A DNA stretch of 64,000 bases. Source: an uncultured archaeon. GTDB lineage: Archaea; Asgardarchaeota; Lokiarchaeia; Sigyniarchaeales; SOKP01. Both the position numbers and the translations under genes were made by a program. The stretch's first letter is position 1; the number at the start of each line of letters is the position of its first letter. Below, piece by piece: positions 1,287-63,601 of the stretch. The notes below the pieces were generated by a model. The model was given only the letters and a program-made list of their open reading frames with translations. It had not been told where the DNA came from and did no database searches. The stretch spans positions 39,465-103,464 of the forward strand of contig CAZGJX010000003.1 of NCBI GenBank assembly GCA_964525635.1, in the 5' to 3' direction.

Positions 1287-1305
1287 ATTAAGAGTAAACT
1301 AAATA

Positions 1306-2762: not shown

Positions 2763-3983
2763 GTGAAAATGGACTATATTGGAAAATATCCTGATAAATT
2801 AGGAAAATTTGGTGATTTTGGGGGTATGTTTGCACCTGAGATCCTTATGCCTGCACTAAATGAATTGACTGAAGCATATAATAAATATATACATGATGAT
2901 GAGTTCCAAAAAGAATTTTATGACATTCTTAAAGATTATAGTGGAAGACCTACACCATTGTATTATGCATCTAAACTAAGTGAACAGATTGGGTGTAAAG
3001 TTTACTTAAAGAGAGAAGATCTCTCCCATGGAGGCGCTCACAAGATCAACAATGTTATAGGACAATCGCTGCTCGCAAAGAAAATTGGTAAGAAACGCTT
3101 AGTAGCTGAAACCGGTGCTGGGCAACATGGATTCGCAACGGCAATAGCGGGGGCTTATTTTGGAATGCCAACAAAAGTATTTATGGGAGAGGTAGATATA
3201 GTAAGACAATCTATGAATGTATATCGAATGCAACTCCTAGGTGCTGAAGTTATTCCTGTTAAATCAGGTTCTAGAACATTGAAAGATGCTATTAATGAAG
3301 GTTTAAGATATTGGATAGCAAATGTTCATGATACACATTATCTCATGGGGAGTGTAGTTGGACCACATCCATATCCTATGTTAGTAAGAGAATTTCAAAG
3401 AGTTATTGGTAAGGAAATAAAACAACAAATATTAGAAAAAGAAGGTAAGCTTCCTAATGCGATTATTGCGTGTATTGGAGGAGGTAGTAATGCTATTGGA
3501 GCTTTCTATGACTTTGTAAATGATGATGTTCAATTAATTGGTGTAGAGGCGGGTGGAGAGGGAATGGAGAGTGGTAAACATTCAATAGCATTAGGTTTAG
3601 GACGTCGAGGTGTTTTACATGGTGCTATGCAACATCTTTTGCAGGATGAGTTTGGAAACATTCTTGAAACTCATTCTATCAGTGCAGGATTAGATTATCC
3701 AGGGGTCGGACCAGAACATTGCTATTTAAAAGAAATTAATCGCTTAAGAGTTGGGGAAGCAACTGATCAGGAGACTTTAGAGGCATTTAAGAATTTATCT
3801 CGTGTTGAAGGTATCATTCCAGCCTTGGAAAGCAGCCATGCTCTTGGATATCTATACAAAATTAGAAATGAATTCGATAAATCAGATATAGTTATTATCA
3901 ATCTTTCTGGATCGGGAAGTAAAGATTTATCAATTGTGGCAGATCATATAAAATTTAAAATACATCCTAAGAACATATTGTAA
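2763..3983 (+). CDS. trpB: tryptophan synthase beta chain
   Basis: Has the [12 protein letters not shown]-lysine motif, [14 protein letters not shown] and a LSGSGSKDL tail. The start is either GTG 2763 or ATG 2769. Confidence 0.95.
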
Positions 3984-4025
3984 TTTTCTTTAGAAAATTA
4001 AATTAATTATTTAAAGTATTAATAA

Positions 4026-4160
4026 ATGATGGAAAATATGGGAATTAACAAGAATAAAATTGAAGAATGTAATGATGATACAGTTATTGTTAAATTATCT
4101 GGTTCAGGATAAAAAGATCTTGATATAATTAAAGAATATATGGTGTTTAAAGTAAAATGA
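4026..4160 (+). pseudogene. relic 3' end of a second trpB copy (about 44 codons with an internal TAA)
   Basis: The frame reads ..DDTVIVKLSGSG*KDLDIIKEYMVFKVK*, parallel to ..[23 protein letters not shown].. of the intact TrpB. Its final TGA overlaps the trpA ATG (ATGA, 4157-4160). Confidence 0.5.
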
Positions 4161-4993
4161 GTAATACAAATAGATTATTTAAGTTATTTAATGGTAGAGA
4201 TGTCAATGACAAATATTTTATGCCCTTTTTTGTAGCAGGAGATCCGAGTATTGATGAGTTTAAGAATATCATCAAGAAAATTGAGCCATATGCAGATATC
4301 ATTGAAATTGGGATACCATTTTCCGATCCTATTGCAGATGGTCCAACAATTCAAGAAGGAAATGTAAGAGCCTTTAAAGCAGGAATTAATACAAAAGTAG
4401 CTCTGGATGCAATTAAAGAACTAAGAAAATCAACTGATAAACCTTTTGTTATTTTAACTTATTATAATATACTTATTCAAGGAGCTGAAACAATAGAAAA
4501 GTCAATTGATAAAACATTTAAACAATTAAAAGAAAGTGGAATAGATGGAATGGTTATCGCAGATCTACCAATTGAGGAAGCAAATTTAGTTTTAGAAGCA
4601 TGTGAAAAGTATGATTTAGCATTAATATTTCTTGTTGCACCTTCTACCACAGAAGAAAGATTAAAAAAGATCTTGCTTAAAGCAAAAGGATTTATTTATC
4701 TAATATCAGTAATGGGTGTAACTGGAGCAAGAGAAACGGTTGCTCAAATTACAAAGGAGAATATAGCAAGAATAAAGCAAAAAACTGATAAAAACCTTCC
4801 CGTTTTTGTAGGATTTGGTATATCAAAACCAGAACATGCAAAAGCTATTATTGAAGCAGGAGCAGATGGAGTTATAATTGGTTCTGCGATTGTAGATCTT
4901 ATTAAAAATAATCTAAATGATTTTCAGGAAATTGAAGGAAAATTAGTAGAATTTCATGAAAACATAAAAAATTCAATAAAGAGGTCGAATTAA
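4157..4993 (+). CDS. trpA: tryptophan synthase alpha chain
   Basis: Has IEIGIPFSDPIADGPTIQ and GFGISKPEH motifs. Confidence 0.92.
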   Translation: MSNTNRLFKLFNGRDVNDKYFMPFFVAGDPSIDEFKNIIKKIEPYADIIEIGIPFSDPIADGPTIQEGNVRAFKAGINTKVALDAIKELRKSTDKPFVILTYYNILIQGAETIEKSIDKTFKQLKESGIDGMVIADLPIEEANLVLEACEKYDLALIFLVAPSTTEERLKKILLKAKGFIYLISVMGVTGARETVAQITKENIARIKQKTDKNLPVFVGFGISKPEHAKAIIEAGADGVIIGSAIVDLIKNNLNDFQEIEGKLVEFHENIKNSIKRSN

Positions 4994-4994
4994 A

Positions 4995-6491
4995 TTGGAT
5001 TTTGACATACATATAGAAAAAATTGGAGAATTAGATAATATCTTTAATTTTTATAAATATCTCATCGAAAAATATGATTTTAAGAAGCATGTCCTATTAG
5101 AATCCTCATCAGGAAACTCAAACGAAACCTTATATAGTTTTATTGCTCTTGAACCTGATTTTATGTTTGAAATTAATGGGAAGAACTATAAAATTTTCGA
5201 TATCACTTCAGAAAGAGGTGAAAATATCAAAAATTATGTTGAATCTAAAGATCCCGCTAAGGAAATACCACGTAATCCCCTACCATTTAATGATAATGTC
5301 GATTATAATATGATTGCTTTAGATACCTTAAGTCATCTTACCCCATATTCTAAATTACCTTTTACTGAACTATTTCCAAGAAATATATTTTTTGGAGGAG
5401 TAGTAGGGGTGATCTCTTATGATATAGTAGCACCATATGTTGGTTATCAATCTAATAGTGAATTTCCAGATATTCTCATGGGACTTTATACAAAAGTACT
5501 TGTATATTCGCACAAATCTAATGCTTTATTTATGATAGATAATAGCCTTGATGATTATTCAAGGGACAAGGACATTAGATATCAATTAGAATTGTTTAAA
5601 AGAAATAATATTAAAAATAAAAAGAAAGATATTCCATTAGATCTCGACGATATAGATGAAAGTATGTTTAGATCGAATACTTCTAAATCAGCTCACGAAC
5701 AAATGGTGAACAAGACTAAAGAGCATATATATGCTGGCGATATAATTCAAGCGGTTATCTCTAGAAGACTATATACTGAAAGTAAAGTAAATCCTATTAA
5801 TTTTTATGAAATACTTAGAGAGCTTAATCCCTCGAATTATATGTATAATATCAATTTCAATTATATTAAAATAATTGGTAGTAGCCCCGAAGCTCTTATA
5901 ACAAAAAATAAAGATGTTCTATCAACTATGCCAATAGCAGGAACGATAAGAAGAAGTAAGGATCCAGAAGAAGACTTGAATTTAGAGAGAGAATTACTAG
6001 GTAATATAAAGGAGAGGGCCGAGCACCTCATGCTAGTAGATTTGGCAAGGAATGACTTAGCTAAGGTCTCATATCCTGGAACTGTCGAAACATTTGATTT
6101 TATGACGATTCAGAAATACCAAAAAGTTCAACATATCGTAAGCAAAGTTAGAAGTAAGACACCTCTTGATGGTTTTCAAGCATTAAAAAGTGTTTTTCCT
6201 GCAGGGACATTATCAGGAGCACCCAAATTAGAAGCTATGAAAATAATCCAAGAACTTGAAACTGAAAATCGCTCATTTTATGGTGGAGCAATTGGCTATT
6301 TCAGTTTTAATGGGGATCTAGCAATGGCAATTGCCATTAGAACATTATTTGGTCGGGGAAATAAATATTTTGCTCAAGCAGGGGGTGGAATTGTCGCAGA
6401 CTCCCAACCAGAACAAGAATTCCAAGAAACTTATAACAAATTATACAGTGTTTTGAAATCAATTAAGATAGCGGAGGCAAGAGAACAATGA
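4995..6491 (+). CDS. trpE: anthranilate synthase component I
   Basis: Has LVDLARNDL, GTLSGAPK, FYGGAIGY and AGGGIVADS. It uses a TTG start 10 nt after an AGAGGT SD. Confidence 0.92.
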   Translation: MDFDIHIEKIGELDNIFNFYKYLIEKYDFKKHVLLESSSGNSNETLYSFIALEPDFMFEINGKNYKIFDITSERGENIKNYVESKDPAKEIPRNPLPFNDNVDYNMIALDTLSHLTPYSKLPFTELFPRNIFFGGVVGVISYDIVAPYVGYQSNSEFPDILMGLYTKVLVYSHKSNALFMIDNSLDDYSRDKDIRYQLELFKRNNIKNKKKDIPLDLDDIDESMFRSNTSKSAHEQMVNKTKEHIYAGDIIQAVISRRLYTESKVNPINFYEILRELNPSNYMYNINFNYIKIIGSSPEALITKNKDVLSTMPIAGTIRRSKDPEEDLNLERELLGNIKERAEHLMLVDLARNDLAKVSYPGTVETFDFMTIQKYQKVQHIVSKVRSKTPLDGFQALKSVFPAGTLSGAPKLEAMKIIQELETENRSFYGGAIGYFSFNGDLAMAIAIRTLFGRGNKYFAQAGGGIVADSQPEQEFQETYNKLYSVLKSIKIAEAREQ

Positions 6492-7081
6492 ATATTTTAT
6501 TTATAAATAATTACGATAGCTTTGTTTATAATTTAGTTAATTATTTCTGTCAGTTGGCTCCAGACGCTAGAATCATGATCGAAGACAATAATATCTCTAT
6601 AGAAAAAGTTGAAGAATATTCTATTGATAAAATTATAATATCACCTGGCCCCGGTCATCCCAAATACGATACAGGAACTGTCATTCCTATTATTAAACAC
6701 TATCATAAAGAAATTCCGATCTTAGGGATTTGTCTTGGACATCAAGCAATTGTTGAAGCTTTTGGTGATAAGCCCGATTTGGAATATATTGGACGAGCTA
6801 AAGTAGGACCTATGCATGGAAAACAATCAAAGATATTTCATGATCAAGAAAAAATCTATAAGGATATACCTAATCCAATCCAAGTTATTCGCTATCATTC
6901 TCTTGCAGCTAAAGGGGACATTCTTCCTCAAGACCTTAAAATCACAGCTACTGCAGATGATGGAACAATTATGGGGGTTCGACATAAACAATTTCCAGTT
7001 GAAGGGGTTCAGTTTCATCCCGAATCAATACAAATGAAGCCCCATGGAATGCAAATTTTAAAAAATTTCTTAGATATATGA
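6488..7081 (+). CDS. trpG: anthranilate synthase component II (glutamine amidotransferase)
   Basis: Has the GICLGHQ nucleophile elbow and FHPES. There is a 4-nt ATGA overlap with trpE. Confidence 0.92.
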   Translation: MNILFINNYDSFVYNLVNYFCQLAPDARIMIEDNNISIEKVEEYSIDKIIISPGPGHPKYDTGTVIPIIKHYHKEIPILGICLGHQAIVEAFGDKPDLEYIGRAKVGPMHGKQSKIFHDQEKIYKDIPNPIQVIRYHSLAAKGDILPQDLKITATADDGTIMGVRHKQFPVEGVQFHPESIQMKPHGMQILKNFLDI

Positions 7082-25538: not shown

Positions 25539-28500
25539 ATAGAAAGAAAGAAAAAAAGACGATTAATATATATTATATTAATTATTGGTATATTTACAGG
25601 TGAATTTATACTCCAATGGATTATCAATATACCATTTATAGAATATTTAAGTGAAAGTGAGGTAAAAAAGTATAAAGATAATATGGGTTATTTTGCTTAT
25701 ACTCACCAAAATCCTGACAGTGGGCTTTTTGTTGAACCTTCTATCGCTTATAATTATAGAGCAATAGATTCAATTAATTTTTCTGACTCTACTTTTAAAA
25801 ATTCTAATTTAACTAATCCTATTGATAATTCTTATCTTGATGTAGAAAATAGTCAATTTTTCTTGGATTATTTATTTGAGAAGCAAAATTCAGATGGTTC
25901 TTTTTCGGATATTGGAGGAATTGGAAATATGATTTCAACTTATCAAGTTGTTAAAACTATAGATAAATTAAATAGTTCTTATTTAGATACACCAGATAAA
26001 TTGGAAAGAGTTGATAAAATTATTGATTTTATAAATATTTCTATGGGTGAGAATGGTTGGGGCTTTAAAGCTCATCCAATCGCAAATGTTTCAGATATTA
26101 TTTCAACATATTATGCAATAAAACTAGCTAAACGGTTTAATAATTATTCAATATTACAGAATAGTAACATAAGTGTATTTATAAATTCTACTAGGTATTT
26201 AGCTCAAGGAGGTTATGGCCTCACAAGTTATAGTCCCATAGTAACTCCAGAAACTACCTATTTTGGAATAAAAGCTCATCTAGAAATGGATTATAATTTC
26301 ACTTTAGAGGATTTAGTCTTACTTGAAACATTTTTTTTTTTAAGAAGAGATCTTTTAGGGGGATATAAAGACTCTATGACGGGTATAACCAATGTAATAT
26401 CAACATATTATGCACTTGCTTCACAATATCTTCTAAATATACCACTCTCTGATTCATTTGAAGAAGTTACATTAGATTTTATACTTGATTGTCAATTACC
26501 TGATGGAAGTTTTGAATATTATCTTAATGTAATTTTGGATATCCCACGATTTAAATCTGGTTGGGCTGCCATGAAAGCTATTTCTTTATTAGAATATAAT
26601 GCTACAGCACCTCTTAGCGTAGCTAATAGTGTTAAAAGCAAATATTATAATTGGTTATATAAAAATCAAGCAATGAATGGTTTAGTTGGACAAATATCTC
26701 TCCAAACAAATTATTTTGGGGTATTATCTTTACATAACTACGATATTCAGAATTATACTTATTATATTAAGATGAATGAAATCTTAAAATATGCGGATTC
26801 CTGTTACAATCCTAATGATGGTGGTTTTGGCTCTAAACCAAATTCTAATTCAACTATTTTTTCAACTTATTGTGCGATTTTTTTATATAACTTATTTCTC
26901 CCTTATAATATATCTTATCTTCCTAATGCAACAGCAACGAAATTATATTTTAAAACAATTCAAAATGAGGATGGAGGTTATAAAGTAGGTGAAGATATAG
27001 ATGTTGTTATTTCCTTCTTTGGTTCCGTATATGAGCCAATCTTACATTTAATAAATACAAATATCTCTACAGTTATAAGTACATATTGGGCATTAAGTAG
27101 TCTAAATGATCTAGATGCATTAGATATAATCAATACTACTTCTTTACAACATTGGATTTTTTCATGTCAGAATGCAGATGGAGGATATTCATTATTCATT
27201 GGATTTCATTCAGATGTAATTTCAACATATTATGGATTAGAAATTCTTAGATTCTTTAATCTAGAACCCCTTTCTAAAATAGCTGCGCTAGAATTCCTTA
27301 AAAAAGCACAATCAGAAGATGGAAGTTTCATTCTAATACCATATCTTTCGTTATTATTTGATTTACCCACTTCCTTTATTGGTAATTATTTAGGCTCAAT
27401 TTCCTTATATTATTATAGATCACAACCCCAAAACTTACCTAATCTAGCTAAGTGGTTTAGAAATTGTTTCAGTAATATTACAGGGGGAGTTGGAGATTAT
27501 CCTTTTTTTGGAGGGGATCTTAGAAATACTCCTTATGGATTACTTATAATTGATCGTATTAGATTTGATCAAGCTTTTGATCCGTTACCATGGACTCGAC
27601 TGATTTTTTGGATAATGATTTCAGAAATTATAGTACTATTGTTAATTGTGATGCTTAATATGGTTTCATATGTAAACCTATCTGTAGTTAGAATACTAAA
27701 ATTAAAATTAGGTATAGGAGACAAATTAAATGTTGAATATTTAAAAAGATATCCAGCAATATATTGTGAAAATTTAAATATCTTTGTAGGTAAAAAGCTA
27801 ATTGTTGATGGTGTATCTTTAGAATTAAATCATGGAAAAATATTAGGCGTATTAGGAGAAAGTGGAGCAGGAAAATCGACTTTTATAAAAGCTTTGTTAG
27901 GTATGAGAAAATATAAAGGTAAATGTGAAGTTTATGGGATGGATGCACGGAAAAACAGAAAGAAATTTAGACCTGTTTTTGGATATGTCCCGCAAGACTT
28001 AGGTAAAATTTATTCCAATTTTACTACTCTACAAAATTTAATCTATTTTGGAAGTCAATACGGTCTTTCTGAAAAACAAATAATTAGTAGAGCAAAAAGA
28101 TTATTAAGAAGCTTAGAGATTGAAGATAAAATAAATGAACCTGTAAAAACACTATCAGGAGGTCAAAAAAGAAGAGTTAGTATTGCAATGGCTTTAATTC
28201 ATACACCAATCTTTTGTATATTGGATGAACCTACATCTGGCTTAGATCCTGTAGTTAGAGAAAATCTATGGCTTGCACTTACTAAGATAAATGAAAGATT
28301 TAATACTACTCTTCTGGTTATTTCTCATTATCCAGAGGAATCAAGATTTTGTAATAAAGTCGTAGTATTTGGTAGAAAAAGAGGAATGATAGATTTTGGC
28401 AATCCAAAGGATTTATTAGCTCAATTACCTGGAAAAGGAAGAACTATTGAATTATCTTTTAATGATTTATATGAAAATGGAGTTCAACGTTTAGAATCAA

Positions 28501-28697
28501 TAATAGGAATTGAAAAAGCTCTTGAAAATAAAGTAGGGAAGGATTTTATAATATTAACAGATTTGAATTTAAATGAAACTAAAAATAGAATTGAAATGGA
28601 ATTCGGTAAAAACTCAATATCAGAATTGAAGCAATCTGATGCTAAAATGGAAGAATATTTTAGGTATAAAGCACTAGAAATTCAGGATTTAATTTAA
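25539..28697 (+). CDS. fusion protein: N-terminal signal anchor, prenyltransferase/terpene-cyclase-like alpha/alpha-toroid repeats, TM helix, C-terminal ABC ATPase
   Basis: At least 9 repeats of the Q..DG(G/S)F...(I/V)STYYAL type are present. The TM is WTRLIFWIMISEIIVLLLIVMLNMV. The ATPase has Walker A GESGAGKST, LSGGQKRRVS and ILDEPTSGLD. The first ATG is at 25683, but the open frame upstream encodes KKKRRLIYIILIIGIFTG. Confidence 0.75.
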   Translation: MERKKKRRLIYIILIIGIFTGEFILQWIINIPFIEYLSESEVKKYKDNMGYFAYTHQNPDSGLFVEPSIAYNYRAIDSINFSDSTFKNSNLTNPIDNSYLDVENSQFFLDYLFEKQNSDGSFSDIGGIGNMISTYQVVKTIDKLNSSYLDTPDKLERVDKIIDFINISMGENGWGFKAHPIANVSDIISTYYAIKLAKRFNNYSILQNSNISVFINSTRYLAQGGYGLTSYSPIVTPETTYFGIKAHLEMDYNFTLEDLVLLETFFFLRRDLLGGYKDSMTGITNVISTYYALASQYLLNIPLSDSFEEVTLDFILDCQLPDGSFEYYLNVILDIPRFKSGWAAMKAISLLEYNATAPLSVANSVKSKYYNWLYKNQAMNGLVGQISLQTNYFGVLSLHNYDIQNYTYYIKMNEILKYADSCYNPNDGGFGSKPNSNSTIFSTYCAIFLYNLFLPYNISYLPNATATKLYFKTIQNEDGGYKVGEDIDVVISFFGSVYEPILHLINTNISTVISTYWALSSLNDLDALDIINTTSLQHWIFSCQNADGGYSLFIGFHSDVISTYYGLEILRFFNLEPLSKIAALEFLKKAQSEDGSFILIPYLSLLFDLPTSFIGNYLGSISLYYYRSQPQNLPNLAKWFRNCFSNITGGVGDYPFFGGDLRNTPYGLLIIDRIRFDQAFDPLPWTRLIFWIMISEIIVLLLIVMLNMVSYVNLSVVRILKLKLGIGDKLNVEYLKRYPAIYCENLNIFVGKKLIVDGVSLELNHGKILGVLGESGAGKSTFIKALLGMRKYKGKCEVYGMDARKNRKKFRPVFGYVPQDLGKIYSNFTTLQNLIYFGSQYGLSEKQIISRAKRLLRSLEIEDKINEPVKTLSGGQKRRVSIAMALIHTPIFCILDEPTSGLDPVVRENLWLALTKINERFNTTLLVISHYPEESRFCNKVVVFGRKRGMIDFGNPKDLLAQLPGKGRTIELSFNDLYENGVQRLESIIGIEKALENKVGKDFIILTDLNLNETKNRIEMEFGKNSISELKQSDAKMEEYFRYKALEIQDLI

Positions 28698-52015: not shown

Positions 52016-53506
52016 ATGGATCCAAAAAAAAAAAAATTTTTAATTCCATTATTAGCAATTATCATAATTATTGCTATATTAATTCCTATGTTAATTATAT
52101 TATTGCAACCTCCCCCAATTAAAAATAGATTAGATGGAGATGAAGGAGTTAGAAAAGCAATTATTCTATGTAGTGCTAATGATTTCTATGGAACTGATGT
52201 AGAACTCCATTTTACAGCTGAAGGAGATTTTGGACCTGTTTGGGAACTGGAAAATGAAGGTGCTTGGAATTATGGATCGAATCCAGGTTTTGGAAATTAT
52301 ACTCCAAATGCATTATATTTCGAACCAGTAAATTCACCACCTGCATACAGTATCGCTAATTACACATATAATTATGTTGATAGAGGTAATAAGTTAATGG
52401 ATGAAAGTTTTTATATTTTGTCAGCAAGTGTTTATCTAAATACTTCAGAACCAATAATAGGACCAGGTGCACGAGTGGGAATACAATGGTTAAATGGCAG
52501 TGGTGTCGTGAGAATTGACTGGTCAAGAAATATAAATTCCACATTATATCAATGGAGATTATTAAGCGTTATGAGTCAATTTAATAATAATAGTATAGAC
52601 AATATTACAGAAATGAAACTAGTATTATCAGTTAAGGGTATTTTTATGGGAGTACCCACGGATCGTGTTTATTTTGATGATGTATTTTTAGAACGATGGG
52701 ATGCTGTTAATAAAACTGATCCTACCAATCCAAATACAAATAACTTATTGAATACTGATGGATTTCCTGCCCAAGCACTTCAAGTCTATAAGACTTTAAA
52801 GAATCATCAGTATACAGATGATAATATATTCCTTATGTTATATCATACAGGAGACGATACAATAGATATTGAAACGGGAGATGGAATTTCAAATGATTTA
52901 ACTGGAGTTATAATAGATGTAGAAAATGATGATGTTAATGCTACTAGATTCAAACAAGAGCTTAATGTTTCTGAAACCGGCTCATTTGCTTCTCAAATTA
53001 ATCCAAAAGATCAATTAATTATCTTTATGTCAGATCATGGTTCAAATGGAATACTACCTGACCGAAATGCAACATTTCATTTTGAAGCCGATCATAGTTA
53101 TATCATGGAATTAGAATTTTATAATTTAGTTAAGGATATTAATTGCACAAGAAAATTAATTAATGTTGATAGTTGTTATAGTGGAAATTTTCTAAATGAA
53201 CAGACACCAATAGGTGCTAGTTGGTATAATTTAACTAATTGTACTTATATAAGTTCTTCAGCGGACCTAGTGTCTTGGTATTGGAGCACAAATCAAAATG
53301 GTGATGGTTGGGCGGGTTCATGGTTTTTCCATCCTTTCTGGAGTCAATTAGATCAAGGTCAATCAATTTCAAATGCGTTTAATTTTGCGTTTAATTTTAT
53401 TCCTGCAGGGCATACACTACCAGTAGGTATGCGTCAATCACCATTAATATATGATAATATGGGAATAATTAATACATGGAGTTTTAACGGTCCAATCCTG
53501 CTTTAG
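52016..53506 (+). CDS. membrane-anchored clan CD cysteine peptidase, C13 (legumain/GPI8)-like, with an inserted beta-rich domain
   Basis: An N-terminal TM is followed by KAIILCSANDFYG ... LQVYKTLKNHQYTDDNIFLMLYH ... IIFMSDHGSNG (His), and 46 residues later NVDSCYSGNF (Cys). About 170 aa ending in YFDDVFLE are inserted after the first strand. Confidence 0.65.
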   Translation: MDPKKKKFLIPLLAIIIIIAILIPMLIILLQPPPIKNRLDGDEGVRKAIILCSANDFYGTDVELHFTAEGDFGPVWELENEGAWNYGSNPGFGNYTPNALYFEPVNSPPAYSIANYTYNYVDRGNKLMDESFYILSASVYLNTSEPIIGPGARVGIQWLNGSGVVRIDWSRNINSTLYQWRLLSVMSQFNNNSIDNITEMKLVLSVKGIFMGVPTDRVYFDDVFLERWDAVNKTDPTNPNTNNLLNTDGFPAQALQVYKTLKNHQYTDDNIFLMLYHTGDDTIDIETGDGISNDLTGVIIDVENDDVNATRFKQELNVSETGSFASQINPKDQLIIFMSDHGSNGILPDRNATFHFEADHSYIMELEFYNLVKDINCTRKLINVDSCYSGNFLNEQTPIGASWYNLTNCTYISSSADLVSWYWSTNQNGDGWAGSWFFHPFWSQLDQGQSISNAFNFAFNFIPAGHTLPVGMRQSPLIYDNMGIINTWSFNGPILL

Positions 53507-53618: not shown

Positions 53619-55679
53619 TTATTCGATATAAACTACCAGTAGTTCTTTTAAATTAATAAAATTTTTAAAAGAATTAACTAAATTTCCTTTTTCTAAGTCA
53701 TCTAATCCATGGTTATTCAATTTAGTAATCTTTTCTTTTAATTTTCCGTATTTGTGGAGTTCTAATAACCCATAATGATTTTTTACCTTTTCTATTGCCA
53801 TTGGACCAATATTCCATTTTATTAGATTACTTGAATTCGATTTTGTAATTTTTTTAGGCTTTATATTTTTTGGTTCAATTATAATATTTATAAAATAATT
53901 AGGGATAATATCTTCTATAACAATACTCTCTAATTGTTTTCCATATCTATTATTAAAGTGCATTTTTACATCATAATGACCTTCAATTTCTCGATTTTCT
54001 ATATTTGAATGAGTTTTTATTAAGTTAATTTGATTTTCTATAATAAAAATAATCGTTCTTGAGATTCTTTTTTGTAACTTATATGTTATTTCAAATTTTT
54101 CCTTTTTCTTTACTTCTTGAACATTCCATATTAATTCTAGTCCTGAACCCGTTAAAGTTTTTTTAGGTGATTTACCTTGATCAACAGGATTACCATTTAA
54201 TTCAATATTTGTAAGCTCAAAATTATAAGGAATAAGATCTGTTAAGATCCCTTCTTTAATAATATCATTAAAGGAGTTTTCAAAACCAGATATTACCTGA
54301 AAACTTGATATTTTATCAGATTCATTGTCATTTTCCTTTATATTTCGGATATTGATTTTTTTTTTTAACTCAATAATTTCGCCAGAAGCACTTGTAAGGA
54401 CGTATTTATTCAAAATTTCATTTTTAATCTCAACTCGATGGTGGTCTAATAATGAATTTATTTGTTTAAACATCTCTTTTTTATCATCAGATAAATCACC
54501 TACAAGTTTTTTTACGGAATATTTATCAATTATGGGTAAAATATCTTCATCTGTTTCTATTATGTTATTAAGTTCTTTAGCTTTTTCAATAAATTTTGAT
54601 ATTTGATTTTTTCTTAGCTCTTCTGATTCTTTTAAATTTGTTTTTAAATTATCAGATAATTGATTATACTTACTTTCCTTATCCTTATCTTCAATTTCCT
54701 TAACTAATTTTATTATATTTTTACAAATAGAGATTGATCTGAGGATATGATTATTATTTTGTGATTCTTCAAGTTTCTTTTCTAATTCTTGAAGATTTTT
54801 AATTTTTGTGTTATATATTTCCTCAAGAGTAGATATATCATTCTTGATATTTTCTAATTTTTTAAGTTGTTCGGGTAAATCTTTATTTTTTAATTTTTGG
54901 ATGATTGAGGTTAATTCAATTCTTGCTTCAGTATAACGCTTATTTTCTTTTAGAATCTTACATTCAGATATTACATTAGCTATATCCCTTTTTAATTGAT
55001 TTAAATCTTTAATATGGATATATCTTTCTTCGAAATTGCTCCATTTTTTGAGAATATCATCATCATATATTTCTTTCAGAAAATTTTTAGATTCATTTAA
55101 GATCTGTTCTACTGATTTAAGATCGTAAGAATCTAAAGAATTAATAATTCTTTTTTCAAGTTTAGCTAGATCCTTTTTAATAGTGTCTTGTTTCTTTTTA
55201 AATTCCTCCCAATTTTCTTTCTCTTCAATGAAAAGTGCCCTAATATCAGAAATAGATTCAAGTTTTACTTTAGTTCCATATTTTTTTTTGAAATCTATGA
55301 TCAAATTATGTGCTTGAAATATTTTCTCTTGTTCTGTTAAATTAATAAATTGAGTTTTTAATCTTTCATAAATAGTATTAATCTCTTTAGTTAATTTTCT
55401 TTTTTCTATTAATAATTCACATTTCCTAATATATTCTTCTTGTTCTTTAACAATTGATGGTAAATTGCCTTCTTTAGCAAGTTCTATTATATCCTTAGTT
55501 ACTTTTATTGCTTCTAAGAAATCTCCAAGCATAAAACAATTATTTTGAGGTATTGTTAAATCTTCAATTCTTTCGAGATATACCATTTTTTTCTTAATTA
55601 TCTTTTTCTTCTTTTTTTTTTCTATATCATACTCTTCTTCTTTATTTTCTTCTACATTATTCTCTTTCATAATCATCAC
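53619..55679 (-). CDS. long coiled-coil protein with a conserved C-terminal beta-rich module (paralog of 55680-57611)
   Basis: K/E-rich heptad-like sequence spans about aa 40-380. The C-terminal ~300 aa are collinear with the paralog (ILPII.(K/E)YSV, H(H)RV(E/K)I, L(T/I)DL(I/V)PYNFE(L/I)TNI, RRISRTII(F/Y)I). Confidence 0.5.
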   Translation of the reverse strand: MMIMKENNVEENKEEEYDIEKKKKKKIIKKKMVYLERIEDLTIPQNNCFMLGDFLEAIKVTKDIIELAKEGNLPSIVKEQEEYIRKCELLIEKRKLTKEINTIYERLKTQFINLTEQEKIFQAHNLIIDFKKKYGTKVKLESISDIRALFIEEKENWEEFKKKQDTIKKDLAKLEKRIINSLDSYDLKSVEQILNESKNFLKEIYDDDILKKWSNFEERYIHIKDLNQLKRDIANVISECKILKENKRYTEARIELTSIIQKLKNKDLPEQLKKLENIKNDISTLEEIYNTKIKNLQELEKKLEESQNNNHILRSISICKNIIKLVKEIEDKDKESKYNQLSDNLKTNLKESEELRKNQISKFIEKAKELNNIIETDEDILPIIDKYSVKKLVGDLSDDKKEMFKQINSLLDHHRVEIKNEILNKYVLTSASGEIIELKKKINIRNIKENDNESDKISSFQVISGFENSFNDIIKEGILTDLIPYNFELTNIELNGNPVDQGKSPKKTLTGSGLELIWNVQEVKKKEKFEITYKLQKRISRTIIFIIENQINLIKTHSNIENREIEGHYDVKMHFNNRYGKQLESIVIEDIIPNYFINIIIEPKNIKPKKITKSNSSNLIKWNIGPMAIEKVKNHYGLLELHKYGKLKEKITKLNNHGLDDLEKGNLVNSFKNFINLKELLVVYIE

Positions 55680-57611
55680 TTATTTTATTTTATATTCCTT
55701 AAATTGATTAATGATTTTTTCATAGAATTGTAATGTTTCTAATAAATTGCCATTATTTAAGGAATTAATACCATCTCTAGCAAGATCTTTAATGCTATTT
55801 TTTAGTTCCTCATATTTATATAATTCCATTAATCTATAGTTAAAATTAAGAACATTTTTTTCTATATTCTCGATAGACCATTTAATAATATTACCTATTT
55901 CAGTTTCATTTTGTTCTGAAGGTAATATATTTTTAGGTTCTTTAATTGAACTGATATAATACGAGGGGATAATATCTTCTATAACTAATCCATTTAATTG
56001 GTTTCCATATGAATTATTAAAAGGCATTTTTGCTTCAAATATACCCTCTAATTGAAGGGAATTTAAATTATTATGTGTATTGATTATTTTTATTTGATCG
56101 TTAAAAATATATATAATAGTTCTTGAAATTCGCCTGCGAAGTTGATAATTAATTTCGATATTTTCTTTCAGTTGGATATTTTCAAGTTTCCATTTATATT
56201 CTATTCCATCTTTAGTAAGTTGTTTATCGGGAGTTTTTTCTACTTCTTTATTATTTATTTTTATATTAGTGATCTCAAAATTATATGGGACTAAATCTAT
56301 AAGAATTGCTTCTTCAATTATCTCATCAAAGGGATTAGAAAATCCAGAATGCCCATATAATAGCAATTTTTCATTATTTTTATTTATTTTTTTTATTTCC
56401 GTGTCTTTTTCGAATTCATGAATTTCTCCTGATAAGCCAAAAAGGAATACTTTAGTTTTTATATTTTTATTTATTTTTACACGATGTTTTTCAAGTAAAA
56501 CTCCAAGTTTTTCAAGTTTCTTATTAGGTTCTTTACTTAAGTTTTCAAGAATTTCACTTACAGAGTATTCATATATTATTGGTAATGTATTCTCATTAAC
56601 CTCTATAACTTTTTTTATTTCTTTCATTTCATTGATTAATTGCTCAGATTCAATCAGTTTTTCCTTATTCTTTTCTTCTAATTCAGATTTAATTTCTTTT
56701 AGAACTAACTTATATTTTTCTTTGATCTCAGACTTTTTATGCTCTTCTGAAATGTTAATTAATTTCTCACATATTTTTAAAGCGGCATATAATTGGGATT
56801 TTTCACGATTTGTATTTAAATTTGTTTCTAGATTTTCAATCTTATTAAAAAAAACTTCATTTTTTTCTTTGAATTTTATTAAATCATTTTTTAGATTAAC
56901 AAGATTCTCTTCATAGCCTTGAATTTCGTTTTCTTGAATTAGTTTTAAAGAGTTTTCAATTTTTGACAAAATAGCATCATATTGATCTTGATTCCATGAT
57001 TTAATTAATTCTTTCTTAGAGGTTTCTATTTCATTTAGAGCTTGTTCCACTTGCTTATTTATATTCCTCCTCTTTACTTCACTGATAAAATCCTCTTGAT
57101 CAATTATGATCGATCTATCATCAAAATTTTGTGCTAACTGAATTATTTTATCTGAAATTTCAATTGCTTGGTTATATTCTTCAGAAAGGAGATATTTATC
57201 TGCTTGAGTCTTTAAATCATCTATTTCCGACATTATAGGAAATAATTTATTTTCTTGATCTTCTATTTTTTTAGTGAGCTGTTCCTTTGTTATTGTAATT
57301 CCACCAGTTTTCATACTATCAAAAAAATCTTGAGTTTCTGATTTTGCATCAATTGTTATATTTCGGAGTATTCTTAATTCAGGGTAGCTTTTCAAAAAAA
57401 TTGCTCTAACACTCGCAATATAATTTTTCAATGATTCAGATACATATTCCCCAACCCAGATATAAAGACGTTTCTGTTTGAATATATATATAGCTAAGAG
57501 GGATACAACTGAAAAATAATCGAGAATATTTTCGGGATTCTCATTTTCTTCACAACTTTCAAAACTCCCACGATATCGTAGACGAAAAATCTTTATTCCA
57601 GAGGATTGCAT
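55680..57611 (-). CDS. gelsolin-like N-terminal domain + coiled coil + C-terminal beta-rich module
   Basis: The N-terminal 100 aa read IKIFRLR..DYFSVVSLLAIYIF..KRLYIWVGEYVSESLKNYIASVRAIFLKS..ITIDAKSETQDFFDSMKTG. This parallels the gelsolin-homology pattern (IWR..F..DaYiL..lh.WlG...s.dE...AA......r..V.qg.Es..F..yFk.G). Confidence 0.5.
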   Translation of the reverse strand: MQSSGIKIFRLRYRGSFESCEENENPENILDYFSVVSLLAIYIFKQKRLYIWVGEYVSESLKNYIASVRAIFLKSYPELRILRNITIDAKSETQDFFDSMKTGGITITKEQLTKKIEDQENKLFPIMSEIDDLKTQADKYLLSEEYNQAIEISDKIIQLAQNFDDRSIIIDQEDFISEVKRRNINKQVEQALNEIETSKKELIKSWNQDQYDAILSKIENSLKLIQENEIQGYEENLVNLKNDLIKFKEKNEVFFNKIENLETNLNTNREKSQLYAALKICEKLINISEEHKKSEIKEKYKLVLKEIKSELEEKNKEKLIESEQLINEMKEIKKVIEVNENTLPIIYEYSVSEILENLSKEPNKKLEKLGVLLEKHRVKINKNIKTKVFLFGLSGEIHEFEKDTEIKKINKNNEKLLLYGHSGFSNPFDEIIEEAILIDLVPYNFEITNIKINNKEVEKTPDKQLTKDGIEYKWKLENIQLKENIEINYQLRRRISRTIIYIFNDQIKIINTHNNLNSLQLEGIFEAKMPFNNSYGNQLNGLVIEDIIPSYYISSIKEPKNILPSEQNETEIGNIIKWSIENIEKNVLNFNYRLMELYKYEELKNSIKDLARDGINSLNNGNLLETLQFYEKIINQFKEYKIK

Positions 57612-59173: not shown

Positions 59174-62100
59174 TTGACGGTCATAGAAGGAAAATACGCA
59201 TATCCATATATAACAGTATTCAAGAAAGAACCTTTTCAATCCTTTCTTACTGTAAAAAAACAAGATATAGGATTATTTTATTTTAGTCAATATGAGAAGG
59301 TTTTAGAATTTTTGAATTATTTTACAGAGAATCTCTTTTTTATTCAATCATTAAATCTTGAAGATATTTATTGGTATTTATTATTGAAGAAATATTTAAA
59401 CGTGACTATAGAACCAGGTATTAAAGCAAAGATTTATGATTTTATTAAGGGTTGTGAAATAGATAAAGATGGAAAATTAGGATTTAAATTCTCTCTTCAT
59501 AAGGAACAAAAACAACCAGATATTTGGTCAACTTATTTAGCGATTTCAAATCTTTATTTATTGGGTGATCTTAGTTTATATCTTAAAACTAAAGGAGAAG
59601 GTATTGTTTTAACTCAAATAAAAGATTTTATTTCTTTACTTGATAAAGGAGATAAGTTCATACACTGTCTTGAAAAAGATTGTGAAATTTGTAAAAAAAA
59701 CCTATCTTATAAAACGTTATATTATGTCTTAGAAATTTTATTTTTATTAAATCTGGAAGTTAGAGAACATAAATCTAAATTTTCATCATATTTAAAGGAT
59801 TTGAAAAAAGATCCTTCTATAATTTTTAAATTATTAAGTCTTAAATTTTTGGATCTCGATCTTAATATTGATGAGAAATTTCTTCATTATTTGCTTGATT
59901 TTCAAAAAGATAATGGAGGTTTTAGTTTTAAAACTGTCAATGGGAAGGTTAATACGACCTTTTGGATAACCTATGTTTTAAACAATTATATATGGCTAAT
60001 GGATTATAATCCTTCAGGAATATATTCATTCATTAATTTACATTTAAATCAAATACTAAAAGATAAATCTTCTTGCTCCTCGAAAAGACTAATAGAAGTC
60101 TCAAAACTAATCATTATCCTTTCTATAATTTGGGATAAATTAATTGAAGAAATTGAGTCTGTATTATTCAAACAAATTGAAGAAAATAGATATATTGATA
60201 TTAAACAATTAAAAAACTCGTTTGGATTATCTGAAGGAATAGAAGAAATTGTGTCATATATTAATTTAAATTATTCGTTTAATCTTAAGATACTAGATAA
60301 TAATATAGAATTCAAGAATTATTTGAGAAGTCTTACCCCAGGAGATAAGTTTCTAGCTTCTGAAGTTTTTAACCAAAGTCAAAAAAAGAGTATAATCTCT
60401 TTGACGAATATTATGAATAAATACAATATGAAATACAATAAAGCGCAAATTAAAATAAAAGATTTTATCCCAATCATAAAAAAAATGATTGAAAATCATT
60501 TGTTAAAGGGTGAAATAAAGACTAAGAAAAAATATCTCTTTGTAACCAAATACTATTTTTATTTAGATTTTGTTTTAGAAAAAATAATAATCTCAGATAT
60601 GGCTATAAAATGCGAGCAATTATTCGAAGAAAAGAAGATCATTGAGGACATTAAAAATGATATTTATAATATGACTCTTAAACTTAAAACTACGGTTTCA
60701 CAAATTAAGGAGGAAATCGAAAGTTATTTATTAATTAATGAGATAAAAATAGCTAAAGATAGGTTAAAATTTATTACTAGAAATGCTCTTATGGAATCCG
60801 ATTTTTTGAATGAAAATATAGAAAACTCATTTAATGAAGAGTTATATTATATCAATATTCAAGCAACTTTAAGATCTGAAATAACTAATTGGCACAAAAC
60901 TTACTCTGTTTTAAGTAAAAGAATAAATAATATTGAATTGCAATTAAAAGAGAAAATATCTGAGAGAGAAGAAATTAGTAAGTTTGACAATATATTAGAT
61001 GAATTGGATAATAAGCTTAGTAATTTAGAAAATTATTTTAATAAGGAGATTGATAGTTTTCGTATATTTTTAACCACAACACTAGAAGATGGCTATAATT
61101 CTGAGAAATTTAATTTGATAGTGGAAGAATTCAATAAGATCATAAAAAGTATGGCAAAATTTGATAGTGTAATTTATAATGTTTCTCAACAAATTACAAA
61201 AAAGGAAGAAAGTCTGCTTAAAAAACATAAACAATTAATATCCTATTGGATTGGTATTAAAGAGGATCTAGATAAAGTAATTAATTTTTATTCCGAAGGT
61301 TTGCTCTTTTTTAAAGAGAAAATTAAATTAACTGAGAAAATACTTGATGAAGTAAAATATGAACTCTTAGCGATAAATGAAAAAGCACAAGAAAAAGTTA
61401 GAACGAATGACTTTCAAAATGCATTTGAAATTATCAAAAAGGAATCAGGGATACTTTTAGAAAAAAATCTTGAAGAAATAAAAACACTTCATAAAGAAGT
61501 AAAAAAAGAAATAAAATCAAAACATAAGCTCTATATACTTTTTCGATTTCTACAAGAAAAGATAGAAGAGTTAGAAGAAAAAATAATTGAAATTATCTCT
61601 AAGGGAACTTATTCTTTAAAAGAAAAATTAGTTGAAGAGAGAAATAGAGTAAAAATTGAAGAATTTGATAATTTTGTTTCTGAAAAAATTAGTTTAATTA
61701 GAAAAGGTCTAACAGATTATAAAATTCAATTAGAACATACAATTAAAACATCAAAATTAGATATTCAAGATGTTATAAAGGGTTTTGATGATATCTTAAA
61801 TGAATTCGAGGAATTTAACTCAATATATCTAAAGAAATTAAATAAGAATCAGGATATCATAGAAAAGATAGATGAAAAATCAAATCTTACAGTTATGCAA
61901 TGGGAAAGGTTCCGCGAATACGTTAGAAATGAAATAACAAACTTGAAAGAAGAATACATAAATGAAATTCTTAGCGTGAAAATTCTTTTTATAGCTGAAA
62001 ATAAAGGTTCAAATTATGTGAATATAAAAGAACTTGCGAGAAAGTTGAATATAAAATGTAAGGAAGCTAGTGACAGAATTAGGGAAATGATTGAAATCTC

Positions 62101-63601
62101 TAGACTCAACGGGGAGATTAATGAGGATGATAAATTTGTATTGATTTTTACTAATTATTATTATAAAAATAAAGAGCTAAGAAATTTCATTTATAATCAA
62201 ATAATTAAATACAATAATGAGACAATAGGTAAGACGTTATCTCTTTATGATTCATGTATTAAAAATAGAACCTTGGGAATAAATATGCTGGAGCTCTCAA
62301 ATAGGATAAATGAATTGGAAGATTTTGACGAAAAAATGCAAGAGAGATTCGAAAATAAAGTAAAAGAACTTATTATTGATATTGAGAGTAGAAAAGAATT
62401 TAAAGAAACAAAAGATTATTTCAGAAATATTATTGATGATTCAAAAAGCGGAATTGAAAATATTAAAAATAATCTAAATCAATTTAAATCACTTCAAAAT
62501 CTTGTTAATATAGAATATAATAATTTAACAATTGATTTTAGTCAAAAATTCCAAAAAATAGAAGAAGATCTTGATAAATTAGATACTTTCGAGAAAATGA
62601 ATGCTTATTTCGAAAGTATTAAAGTTAAGCTGGAAGAAAAAATAAAAGAAAGACAAGAAAAACTTGAGATTAAACTTAAAGATTCAATTGAAAAAAATAG
62701 TGAAACCATAAAATTAAATCCTGAAATAAGAGAATTCTTTGTTAAAAAGAAAAATATTTTTTTGCATGATTATGATGAGAAAATAAGGAATATAAATTAT
62801 AAAATTAGTCGAAAGAAAAATGAAATTCTTCAGGGAGAATTGCTAGATTTTATCAATAATAGTAAAATCCAACTAAACCAATTATTGGGTGTATTGCAAA
62901 CAAGAATAGAAGATGATGTTGAAGTAAAGGAATTTAAAAGAGCGACTAATAACATTGATAAGAGAATAACCAATATTAAAGTTCTATTGAAAATAAATAA
63001 AAGAAATTTGAAGGATCTTATTAGAGATATTAGTAGACAAGCAAAAGATTTTGAAACCAAGAATAAATATATCTTAGATGATTTTAACCAATATTTAATA
63101 GAATATAAATCAATTTTACTTGAGAAAGCTAAAACTCTTGAAAGATATATTTTAAGATCATTCATAGAAATGGCTATTAAGGCCGTTTCAAATGAATATC
63201 TAACCCTAGGTTTTATGAATAAAGAAATAGCAATAAAAAAGCAAAACATTCAAGATCATCTCTTAACTTTAATTAGTCAGGATAAATTAAAAGGTAAATA
63301 TGATCCTCGGTTGGGATTATATTATGAAAATCCTGATGTTATCGAAAATTTAGATGAAACTGAACTAGAAGTTATGAAGAAAATGAATTATAAAGTCTAT
63401 ATGTTCATGAACCGTCTAAAAAATTTTACCAGCCATTATTATTCAATTATTGGATTCTTTGCTAGTATGTTCACACTTAGTTACTATTTATTGTTATTTA
63501 GTGGATGGAATCTCGCTGTATTAATCATTCCTATATTAATTATTATTGTATTATTTTATTATCTATTCACAAGAAGAAAAGAAAAGAAAATGGATATTTG
63601 A
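59174..63601 (+). CDS. 1475-aa protein: prenyltransferase-like alpha/alpha-toroid repeats, winged-helix-like inserts, ~1000-aa coiled coil, C-terminal double TM anchor
   Basis: Has ..DKDGKLGFKFS..PDIWSTYLAISNLYLLG.. and ..FQKDNGGFSFK..NTTFWITYVLNNY... A long K/E/I/N heptad-like region follows. The C-terminus reads YYSIIGFFASMFTLSYYLLLFSGWNLAVLIIPILIIIVLFYYLF. The start is TTG. Confidence 0.55.
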   Translation: MTVIEGKYAYPYITVFKKEPFQSFLTVKKQDIGLFYFSQYEKVLEFLNYFTENLFFIQSLNLEDIYWYLLLKKYLNVTIEPGIKAKIYDFIKGCEIDKDGKLGFKFSLHKEQKQPDIWSTYLAISNLYLLGDLSLYLKTKGEGIVLTQIKDFISLLDKGDKFIHCLEKDCEICKKNLSYKTLYYVLEILFLLNLEVREHKSKFSSYLKDLKKDPSIIFKLLSLKFLDLDLNIDEKFLHYLLDFQKDNGGFSFKTVNGKVNTTFWITYVLNNYIWLMDYNPSGIYSFINLHLNQILKDKSSCSSKRLIEVSKLIIILSIIWDKLIEEIESVLFKQIEENRYIDIKQLKNSFGLSEGIEEIVSYINLNYSFNLKILDNNIEFKNYLRSLTPGDKFLASEVFNQSQKKSIISLTNIMNKYNMKYNKAQIKIKDFIPIIKKMIENHLLKGEIKTKKKYLFVTKYYFYLDFVLEKIIISDMAIKCEQLFEEKKIIEDIKNDIYNMTLKLKTTVSQIKEEIESYLLINEIKIAKDRLKFITRNALMESDFLNENIENSFNEELYYINIQATLRSEITNWHKTYSVLSKRINNIELQLKEKISEREEISKFDNILDELDNKLSNLENYFNKEIDSFRIFLTTTLEDGYNSEKFNLIVEEFNKIIKSMAKFDSVIYNVSQQITKKEESLLKKHKQLISYWIGIKEDLDKVINFYSEGLLFFKEKIKLTEKILDEVKYELLAINEKAQEKVRTNDFQNAFEIIKKESGILLEKNLEEIKTLHKEVKKEIKSKHKLYILFRFLQEKIEELEEKIIEIISKGTYSLKEKLVEERNRVKIEEFDNFVSEKISLIRKGLTDYKIQLEHTIKTSKLDIQDVIKGFDDILNEFEEFNSIYLKKLNKNQDIIEKIDEKSNLTVMQWERFREYVRNEITNLKEEYINEILSVKILFIAENKGSNYVNIKELARKLNIKCKEASDRIREMIEISRLNGEINEDDKFVLIFTNYYYKNKELRNFIYNQIIKYNNETIGKTLSLYDSCIKNRTLGINMLELSNRINELEDFDEKMQERFENKVKELIIDIESRKEFKETKDYFRNIIDDSKSGIENIKNNLNQFKSLQNLVNIEYNNLTIDFSQKFQKIEEDLDKLDTFEKMNAYFESIKVKLEEKIKERQEKLEIKLKDSIEKNSETIKLNPEIREFFVKKKNIFLHDYDEKIRNINYKISRKKNEILQGELLDFINNSKIQLNQLLGVLQTRIEDDVEVKEFKRATNNIDKRITNIKVLLKINKRNLKDLIRDISRQAKDFETKNKYILDDFNQYLIEYKSILLEKAKTLERYILRSFIEMAIKAVSNEYLTLGFMNKEIAIKKQNIQDHLLTLISQDKLKGKYDPRLGLYYENPDVIENLDETELEVMKKMNYKVYMFMNRLKNFTSHYYSIIGFFASMFTLSYYLLLFSGWNLAVLIIPILIIIVLFYYLFTRRKEKKMDI

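Follow-up and report, generated by a model that had tools for sequence, protein, structure and literature searches.

We analyzed a stretch of 64,000 nucleotides, hereafter the window, from an uncultured archaeon of the Asgardarchaeota (Lokiarchaeia; assembly GCA_964525635.1, contig CAZGJX010000003.1, positions 39,465 to 103,464). The subject of this study is a gene on the minus strand that encodes a protein of 643 amino acids. Profile comparisons and a predicted structure show that residues 1-102 of this protein form a gelsolin-homology (GH) domain similar to that of the archaeal gelsolin ProGel. The protein is best explained as a cytoplasmic, single-gelsolin-domain protein of the 'GelX' (1DGelX) type from an Asgard archaeon. 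The gene is followed by that of a headless paralog, and together the two probably act as an actin-attached regulator or linker.

Three architectures of Asgard gelsolins were defined by Akil et al. in 2020, namely ProGel, 2DGel and 1DGelX; in the last of these, a domain X that is predicted to be a coiled coil follows a single gelsolin domain (PMC7444086). ProGel, from Thorarchaeota, was crystallised on rabbit actin (7C2F) and is a single domain of 88-94 residues with no calcium site (PMC7444086).

The open reading frame (ORF) of 643 codons listed at 55680..57611 in a first-pass annotation of the window was borne out, with an ATG start, and the segment flagged there (57312-57611) represents residues 1-100 of the protein. 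The exact 643-residue protein is also found on public contigs. The parts of the protein, and the paralog, are as follows, with the basis for each given last.

55680..57611, minus strand: complete ORF of 643 residues with GH head, helical region X, duplicated C-domain and tail; ORF list.
57306..57611, minus strand: GH domain, residues 1-102; AlphaFold2 (AF2) with a multiple sequence alignment, Foldseek, and profile against the Protein Data Bank (PDB).
56487..57305, minus strand: charged region resembling 'domain X', residues 103-375, presumed helical; composition and heptad score.
56115..56465, minus strand: C-domain repeat 1, residues ~383-499, containing DLVPYNFEITNI, GIEYKWKLENI and INYQLRRRISRT; alignment A3 and hhalign.
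55836..56114, minus strand: C-domain repeat 2, residues ~500-592, containing GIFEAKMPFNNSYG, VIEDIIPSYY, IIKWSIENI and FNYRL; alignment A3 and hhalign.
55689..55835, minus strand: C-terminal helical tail motif of ~45 residues, residues 593-641, containing LYKYEELK and LNNGNLLETLQFYEKIINQFKEY; hidden Markov model (HMM) of the tail.
53619..55679, minus strand: headless paralog of 686 residues with helical region, C-domain and tail, no GH domain; pairwise alignment and HMMs.

A gelsolin-homology domain at the N-terminus

The gelsolin likeness of the first ~100 residues had been proposed from an alignment by eye, which is a reasonable lead but not significant evidence alone. A phmmer search of the PDB with the window head as the only sequence gave a sole match, to domain 6 of villin-1 (2LLF) on the KRLYIWVGEYVSESLK segment, with an E-value of 1.3. 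In Pfam, the same sequence showed a sub-threshold match to DUF7904 (16 bits, with a cut-off of 30). A word-indexed homologue search yielded no match for the head alone and only 2 short proteins for the head profile. When 1.84 billion cluster representatives were scanned exhaustively with HMMER, 72 proteins with the head domain were identified at E<=1e-3, of which 48 reached E<=1e-10. The domain is N-terminal in all 72 representatives, which range in length from 82 to 1417 residues.

An alignment of 69 heads (A1) was the basis of the family profile, the conservation counts and the AF2 alignment input. In this alignment W52 is invariant, and G15, F33, Y42, Y50, G54, R83, E92 and F96 are conserved at >=90%. 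The A1 profile was compared with all PDB sequences, and the top match was ProGel (7c2f_B, E 4.4e-7, profile positions 6-100 on chain positions 4-93), followed by villin (1.2e-6), adseverin (1.2e-5), the Loki 2DGel 7whg (9e-4) and then villin-1. Villin and adseverin were matched across several of their repeats. The four segment correspondences noted by eye in the first-pass annotation were all reproduced by the HMMER profile alignments to solved gelsolin-family chains. Thus, IKIFRL is aligned with 'VEIWRVE', LLAIYIF with 'GGDCYIILYTY', KRLYIWVGEYVSESLK with IYVWIGNKCSVDEK and IFIWIGKDANEVEK, and ITIDAKSETQDFF with RIQEGEEPEEFW and KVPEGGESSEFKSLF.

The AF2 model of the head with the A1 alignment had a pLDDT (predicted local distance difference test) of 88.4 and a pTM (predicted template modelling score) of 0.81; the single-sequence model was poor, with a pLDDT of 45. 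The model displays strands at residues 6-11 and 17-19, a short helix at 26-32, strands at 38-43 and 48-53 (W52-V53-G54), a long kinked helix at 59-75, a strand at 83-88 and a short helix at 94-102. Apart from the first short helix, this order of elements (four strands, long helix, strand, short helix) is that of the gelsolin-homology fold, in which a central mixed beta-sheet lies between the long and the short helix. A Foldseek search of the PDB with the model gave 71 matches at E<=1e-3, and the top 50 were all gelsolin-family chains. The best match was again the ProGel chain of the actin complex, 7c2f_B (E 2.4e-6, target-normalised TM-score 0.75, identity 18%), and the top 50 also included villin D6, gelsolin G1-G6, fragmin, CapG, adseverin and the Thor and Heimdall 2DGels. 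The structure prediction thereby agrees with the assignment of residues 1 to ~100 to the gelsolin type.

The E-value of 1.3 in the single-sequence search, the pLDDT of 45 for the single-sequence model and the low GC content of the window (~26%) might suggest that an AT-rich ORF of low complexity resembles gelsolin by chance. However, the domain recurs in 72 cluster representatives, with high significance in 48, the profile reaches E-values down to 4e-7 against gelsolin-family chains, and the high-confidence model retrieves a top 50 made up solely of that family. Based on the family conservation, the profile E-values, the AF2 model and the Foldseek search, we regard chance resemblance as excluded.

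Signature residues and the calcium site

The WxG motif is a signature for recognising gelsolin domains (PMC9433394); it has also been termed the 'DWG motif', with WP instead in cofilins (PMC7444086). In the window protein the motif is W52-V53-G54, at the end of the strand that precedes the long helix, and in the family the W is present in 69 of 69 heads and the G in 65 of 69. Membership in the cofilin/ADF-H family was rejected based on the presence of WxG rather than WP (PMC7444086) and the lack of any cofilin chain in the Foldseek top 50.

The type-II calcium site of gelsolins consists of an Asp in the third strand and a Glu at the start of the long helix, and its positions in the head were assigned from the HMM alignments and by reference to gelsolin G1. 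The position of the calcium-binding Glu is L61 in the window protein, as assigned from the HMM alignment of 'WIGNKCSVDEK' in the Loki 2DGel with 'WIGKNASQSLK', and is L, V, I or M in 69 of 69 family members. At the Asp position the window protein has S37, and in the family N is found in 35 members, D in 14 and S in 12. Because a hydrophobic residue occupies the Glu position, we infer that the head is calcium-independent, like ProGel and 1DGelX and unlike 2DGel.

The segment that follows the head (residues ~104-135, 57210-57300, minus strand, KEQLTKKIEDQENKLFPIMSEIDDLK) has the family-wide consensus QExKLxPxxSEIxxLK and is located where the 2DGels carry a WH2-like motif. A WH2-like motif in this segment (SEI[ND]xLK) was rejected by visual inspection, as its spacing to LK is unlike that of LLxxIxxGxxLKKV.

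Distribution among Asgard archaea

A search with the single window protein identified no relative in the genome collection. Using a pattern from an 11-sequence sub-alignment and one genome per GTDB species, 40 loci that encode the head were identified. Of these, 32 are from metagenome-assembled genomes (MAGs) of Promethearchaeota, Promethearchaeia, Thor-, Hod- or Hermodarchaeota or from the complete genome of Candidatus Lokiarchaeum ossiferum, and another seven are labelled 'uncultured archaeon'. The remaining locus (L016, DATKTW010000003.1) is from a MAG named 'Candidatus Nanopelagicaceae bacterium'. Its contig carries the GH gene, the partner gene and flanking gene families as in the Loki-type loci, and since the full Loki-type gene order is shared, the contig probably stems from an Asgard archaeon and was placed in an actinobacterial MAG by mis-binning. 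No relatives were found in the viral contig collection. All C-domain homologues named by NCBI are Asgard proteins, and wherever a name was returned, family members were annotated as 'hypothetical protein', for example 'hypothetical protein [Promethearchaeota]'. Among named sources, the family is restricted to Asgard archaea, and by this distribution, too, the window is almost certainly of Asgard origin.

In L. ossiferum, the homologue at L039 5980-8583 (CP104013, ~3.356 Mb) is 867 residues long and combines the GH head with a helical region and with AREEAEQK repeated in tandem ~50 times. Judging from its genome position, it appears not to be among the five GH proteins listed in the Lokiactin co-immunoprecipitation table of a 2025 preprint.

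Helical region, duplicated C-domain and tail

Residues 105-375 are rich in E, K, I, L and N, with no more than 3 Pro and 2 Gly among the 271 residues, and have a crude heptad score ~2.4 standard deviations above that of shuffled sequences. The coiled coil proposed in the first-pass annotation agrees with this composition and score; the region is compatible with a helical rod or a coiled coil. Relatives showed weak TPR-like matches. The first ~100 residues of the helical region are conserved in the GH proteins of ~350 residues, and residues 8-213 of the window protein are 42% identical to one of these, a 353-residue protein of Loki_b31.

The C-domain comprises ~220 residues within residues 376-643 and is 33-53% identical to those of 14 other representatives with lengths of 728-1417 residues. 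It is shared with the neighbouring headless gene and is absent from the ~350-residue forms of the family. Alignment A3 of the C-domain contains 28 invariant positions, including those of an RRR[IV]SRT…KTH stretch. A comparison of repeat 1 with repeat 2 by hhalign gave a probability of 95.7% and an E-value of 9e-9. The two halves are thus homologous, and what had been described as a double beta-rich tail is a true tandem duplication.

Searches of the PDB yielded only a spurious G-gamma match (E 0.016) for the C-domain profile and nothing for the merged repeat profile, and neither the whole C-domain nor the merged repeat profile had a significant match in Pfam or NCBIfam. Among 16 members, faint sub-threshold matches were obtained to the immunoglobulin (Ig)-like families GBS104-like_Ig (3 members, E 0.018), fn3_4 (1 member, 8e-4) and DUF11 (1 member, 0.069), and no profile match that would place the repeats in an Ig-like family was significant. 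The pattern hxhxDhhPxxh…GxhhxWxh…hxYxL resembles, by eye, that of the CARDB/DUF11 sandwiches.

Between the two repeats, at residues ~488-505 (56100-56150, minus strand), the basic stretch RRR[IV]SRT followed by KTH is nearly invariant, and its R-R-x-S resembles a site for basophilic kinases or a charged binding patch. In a metagenomic protein of 126 residues (P0049), the first ~80 residues of the GH head are joined straight to the middle of the C-domain, RTIIFMLKDQLKIIKTH; the protein is a variant with an internal deletion or else a chimera that arose in assembly.

The last ~45 residues, with LNNGNLLETLQFYEKIINQFKEY, represent a separate helical motif. The tail HMM matched the 643-residue protein with an E-value of 8.8e-22 and the headless neighbour with 1.1e-18. 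The same HMM detects the C-termini of the ~350-residue members and of their downstream neighbours, with E-values of 2.5e-9 and 3.2e-11 in a Loki-type pair of 353 and 329 residues.

A conserved pair with a headless paralog

The headless gene is located directly 3' of the GH gene on the same strand, with its start 0-9 nucleotides past the GH stop codon. The start is GTG at 55679 in the ORF list (686 residues) and ATG at 55670 in public gene calls (683 residues); the public callers used the latter, and the 686-residue version is not in the protein collection. The headless protein is 37% identical to the GH protein over 400 residues (E 4e-76). It matches the C-domain HMM with an E-value of 2.6e-102 and has no match to the GH HMM.

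We scanned the related loci with the GH, C-domain and tail HMMs. At 33 loci with downstream DNA, a headless helical gene was found 3' of the GH gene on the same strand, at distances of -49 to +38 nucleotides, and in most of these the headless protein bears the tail. The arrangements can be grouped into three configurations.

Configuration A: GH-X-tail (~350 residues), then X-tail (~330-390 residues); the commonest, Loki-type.
Configuration B: GH-X-tail (300-570 residues), then X-Cdomain-tail (600-815 residues).
Configuration C: GH-X-Cdomain-tail (643-775 residues), then X-Cdomain-tail (656-704 residues); the window type, also in Thor and Hod MAGs.

At one locus (L038) the head is present in both genes, and at another three (L039, L040 and L041), among them that of L. 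ossiferum, the GH gene has no adjacent partner.

The GH domain and the C-domain are thus either fused in one chain or located on adjacent genes. Such fused and split arrangements, combined with tight gene junctions, are a classical signature of proteins that act together, and the two paralogs may form a complex. Alternatively, the GH protein may be a stand-alone long 1DGelX with calcium-independent severing and nucleating activity, in which the C-terminal part binds the filament side and the headless gene is a degenerate duplicate with no joint function. This explanation agrees with the published activity of a 1DGelX, which was measured with the single protein alone (PMC7444086), with the three loci where the GH gene lacks an adjacent partner, and with the GH head and proximal helical region being common to the ~350-residue class. 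However, in Thor-, Hod- and Loki-type lineages alike the headless gene has been kept beside the GH gene, the headless proteins retain an intact C-domain and tail (HMM E-values of 1e-84 to 1e-109) with a tight or overlapping junction, and split and fused GH/C-domain configurations coexist. The conserved gene pair and these configurations suggest a joint function of the paralogs rather than decay, and we consider the stand-alone explanation quite unlikely.

Other genes accompany the pair in the related loci. A conserved protein of ~140-160 residues with no Pfam match is encoded near the GH gene pair (L004 5492-5920 and L017 8103-8576, with equivalents in 25 loci), and many loci of the Loki, Thor and Hod types have it together with genes for a GNAT acetyltransferase and an enoyl-CoA hydratase. 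The window lacks this gene context. The neighbours in the window itself, which encode an aminotransferase, a giant protein of 1475 residues, a C13 peptidase, LeuA and an iron-containing alcohol dehydrogenase (Fe-ADH), showed no synteny in the related loci.

Proposed function of the pair

We propose that the GelX-type pair probably serves as an actin-attached regulator or linker, a proposal drawn from the sequence comparisons and from analogy with characterised gelsolins. The head would bind the actin of the organism (Lokiactin) with no calcium control. In crystal structures of ProGel and gelsolin G1, the long helix occupies the cleft that separates actin subdomains 1 and 3, and the head would dock there in the same way. 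The two paralogs would pair via their helical regions and tails to give a complex with one actin-binding head, and the C-domains could engage a second partner, such as the filament side, a membrane or another protein. The pair would accordingly be attached to actin rather than act as a free severing enzyme. The tether or crosslinker function suggested in the first-pass annotation is compatible with the data.

Experimental results are available for related proteins. The 1DGelX of Thorarchaeota (KXH72031.1) binds rabbit actin with a Kd of 7.7 µM, has nucleating activity at low ratios and is a robust severing factor that does not need calcium, and domain X was proposed by Akil et al. to supply filament side-binding (PMC7444086). 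Lokiactin is reported to be conserved in all Promethearchaeota, and five GH proteins co-precipitate with it in L. ossiferum (10.1101/2025.11.30.690169). From the affiliation of the window, an actin homologue is therefore to be expected in its genome. These include B35_GelX (UYP44381.1), which consists of a GH domain, an extensive linker and an X domain (10.1101/2025.11.30.690169).

Several observations weigh against the proposed function. By itself, the window head is not significantly similar to any solved gelsolin in the PDB. Neither does it match the Pfam family Gelsolin (PF00626), to which 7 of the 69 family members gave matches at E<=1, the best being 9.2e-4 and none passing the cut-off. 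ProGel binds rabbit actin weakly, with a Kd of 337 µM (PMC7444086). No actin or profilin gene was identified in the 64-kb window by Pfam scans of 42 of the 44 ORFs of >=120 residues. As for the pair, the helical regions of the two window proteins differ in length (~270 versus 414 residues), and it is gene adjacency and paralogy that suggest heterodimerisation.

Some of these results also bear on another explanation, that the head has a gelsolin fold but is a protein-interaction module for ligands other than actin, as in Sec23/24 or plant MKP1, and that the pair is a scaffold unrelated to actin. When the 69 members were compared singly with Pfam, sub-threshold matches to DUF7904 and MPK1_gelsolin_C (17 of 69 each) were as frequent as or more frequent than those to Gelsolin (7 of 69), whose cut-off the head does not reach. 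The low affinity of ProGel for rabbit actin would agree with such a module, as would the gelsolin-like domain of Sec23a, which is not known to bind actin (PMC7444086). The window contains no actin-related gene, and no conserved actin or profilin neighbour was found in the related loci. On the other hand, the best matches in both sequence and structure are actin-bound members of the gelsolin family (ProGel, G1, villin, adseverin, fragmin and 2DGel), and no Sec23/24 chain is present in the Foldseek top 50. Furthermore, the WxG signature is invariant or nearly so, and the family does not extend beyond the only prokaryotic phylum whose actin cytoskeleton is regulated. A function unrelated to actin is therefore unlikely in our view, and a role of the pair at actin is preferred.

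A more far-reaching model, which we offer tentatively as a possibility, is that the Asgard GelX proteins are obligate two-subunit complexes of a gelsolin-headed chain and a co-transcribed headless paralog, joined by the helical regions and the tail, and that the window-type C-domains anchor Lokiactin filaments to a second structure. If so, the natural partner was missing when the activities of 1DGelX were determined in vitro, and the pair could be regarded, by analogy, as an archaeal forerunner of the head-rod-repeat actin linkers.

To our knowledge, Asgard archaea are the only prokaryotes with a regulated eukaryote-like actin cytoskeleton, and the only Asgard actin regulators named so far are profilins and small gelsolins. 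The head/headless pair and the Asgard-specific C-domain are candidates for linking Lokiactin filaments to other structures of the cell, and the gene pair suggests that a partner of the characterised 1DGelX may have gone unnoticed. Since the family falls below the Pfam Gelsolin threshold and is annotated as hypothetical, domain-based censuses of Asgard actin-binding proteins may undercount it.

Other genes of the window

Two-component and ABC genes, several genes for long helical proteins and a tryptophan (trp) operon are also found in the window. The trp operon (228-7081, plus strand) is ordinary and appears complete, with TrpD, TrpC, TrpF, a TrpB-like PALP, TrpA, TrpE and TrpG. At 25683-28697 (plus strand), adjoining ABC-2 permease genes, an unusual fusion protein of 1004 residues combines a prenyltransferase alpha-alpha toroid (E 1.4e-27) with an ABC-transporter ATPase. 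A homologue of peptidase C13 (legumain/caspase-fold; E 4.8e-11) is encoded at 52016-53506 (plus strand), convergent to the headless gene, and is not conserved in the related loci. The protein of 1475 residues (59174-63601, plus strand) has a weak N-terminal match to a prenyltransferase/terpene-cyclase-like alpha-alpha toroid (E 3.7e-5), followed by ~1100 residues of charged helical sequence and a C-terminal hydrophobic segment with a weak YajC-like match. From its sequence, it looks like a giant tail-anchored rod protein.

Comparison with known systems

ProGel is the best match of the head in both profile and structure and is similar in length, in the WxG motif and in the strand-helix motif 'E-G-S-E-P..F'. 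It differs in being a stand-alone protein of ~90 residues, whereas the window domain heads a multidomain protein of 643 residues. ProGel matches the same three Pfam families as the members of the window family and passes the cut-off of PF00626 (24.8 bits, with a cut-off of 21), which the window family does not.

The repeats of gelsolin, villin, adseverin and CapG (PF00626) have the same fold and the same order of strands and helices, and complexes of G1 with actin dominate the Foldseek list. In contrast to these proteins, which have 3-6 repeats, the window protein has a single repeat, which is below the Pfam threshold and lacks a strand after the short helix in the model, and the calcium-binding Glu is replaced in 69 of 69 heads. 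The 2DGels (Thor 7C2G/7C2H, Loki 7WHG and Heimdall 7WHF) contain a homologous GH domain and were found at Foldseek ranks 7, 37 and 48. Some of them have lineage-specific C-terminal extensions (PMC9433394), a trait shared with the window protein. However, the 2DGels have two GH domains, calcium sites and a WH2-like LKDV motif, whereas the window protein has one GH domain with no calcium-binding Glu, and the segment after its head does not show, by eye, the canonical WH2 spacing.

Filamin provides a functional analogy only, with an N-terminal actin-binding module (putative in the window protein), an elongated region, beta-rich repeats and a C-terminal pairing element. The two are not homologous; the head of filamin is a pair of CH domains, and the Ig fold and the dimerisation that are established for filamin are conjectural here.

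The closest published counterpart is 1DGelX/GelX, which likewise has a single GH domain at the N-terminus and is restricted to Asgard archaea. The non-gelsolin part after the head, which in 1DGelX is the domain X with its predicted coiled coil, is presumably helical or coiled coil in the window protein as well. Exactly one full-length match to the GH HMM, N-terminal, was found in the window protein and in each relative, and the lack of the calcium-binding Glu in the family matches the published calcium-independent activity. Two 1DGelX genes are known in MKD1 and three in Loki GC14_75 (PMC9433394). The gelsolin domain of 1DGelX is 35% identical to ProGel, and the protein migrates near actin on gels (PMC7444086). 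The ~350-residue members of the window family are 31-39% identical to ProGel, with an estimated size of ~41 kDa, compared to 42 kDa for actin. Their size and ProGel identity, together with the 42% identity of the window protein to them, suggest that the family belongs to the 1DGelX class, which it fits in published description, size and ProGel identity.

The window protein differs from the published description of 1DGelX by the additional, duplicated beta-rich C-domain of ~220 residues. The Asgard gelsolin literature that we compared mentions neither this C-domain nor the tail motif common to both paralogs, nor a headless gene as partner. The suggestion that a gelsolin head on a coiled coil would be a new architecture is only partly right, as this basic plan was published as 1DGelX (PMC7444086). 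The duplicated C-domain and the paired headless gene go beyond what the first-pass annotation had noted. The head type and the plan of a GH domain plus helical extension are already known and the existing picture is not overturned; what is new is the C-domain, the tail and the pairing of the two genes.

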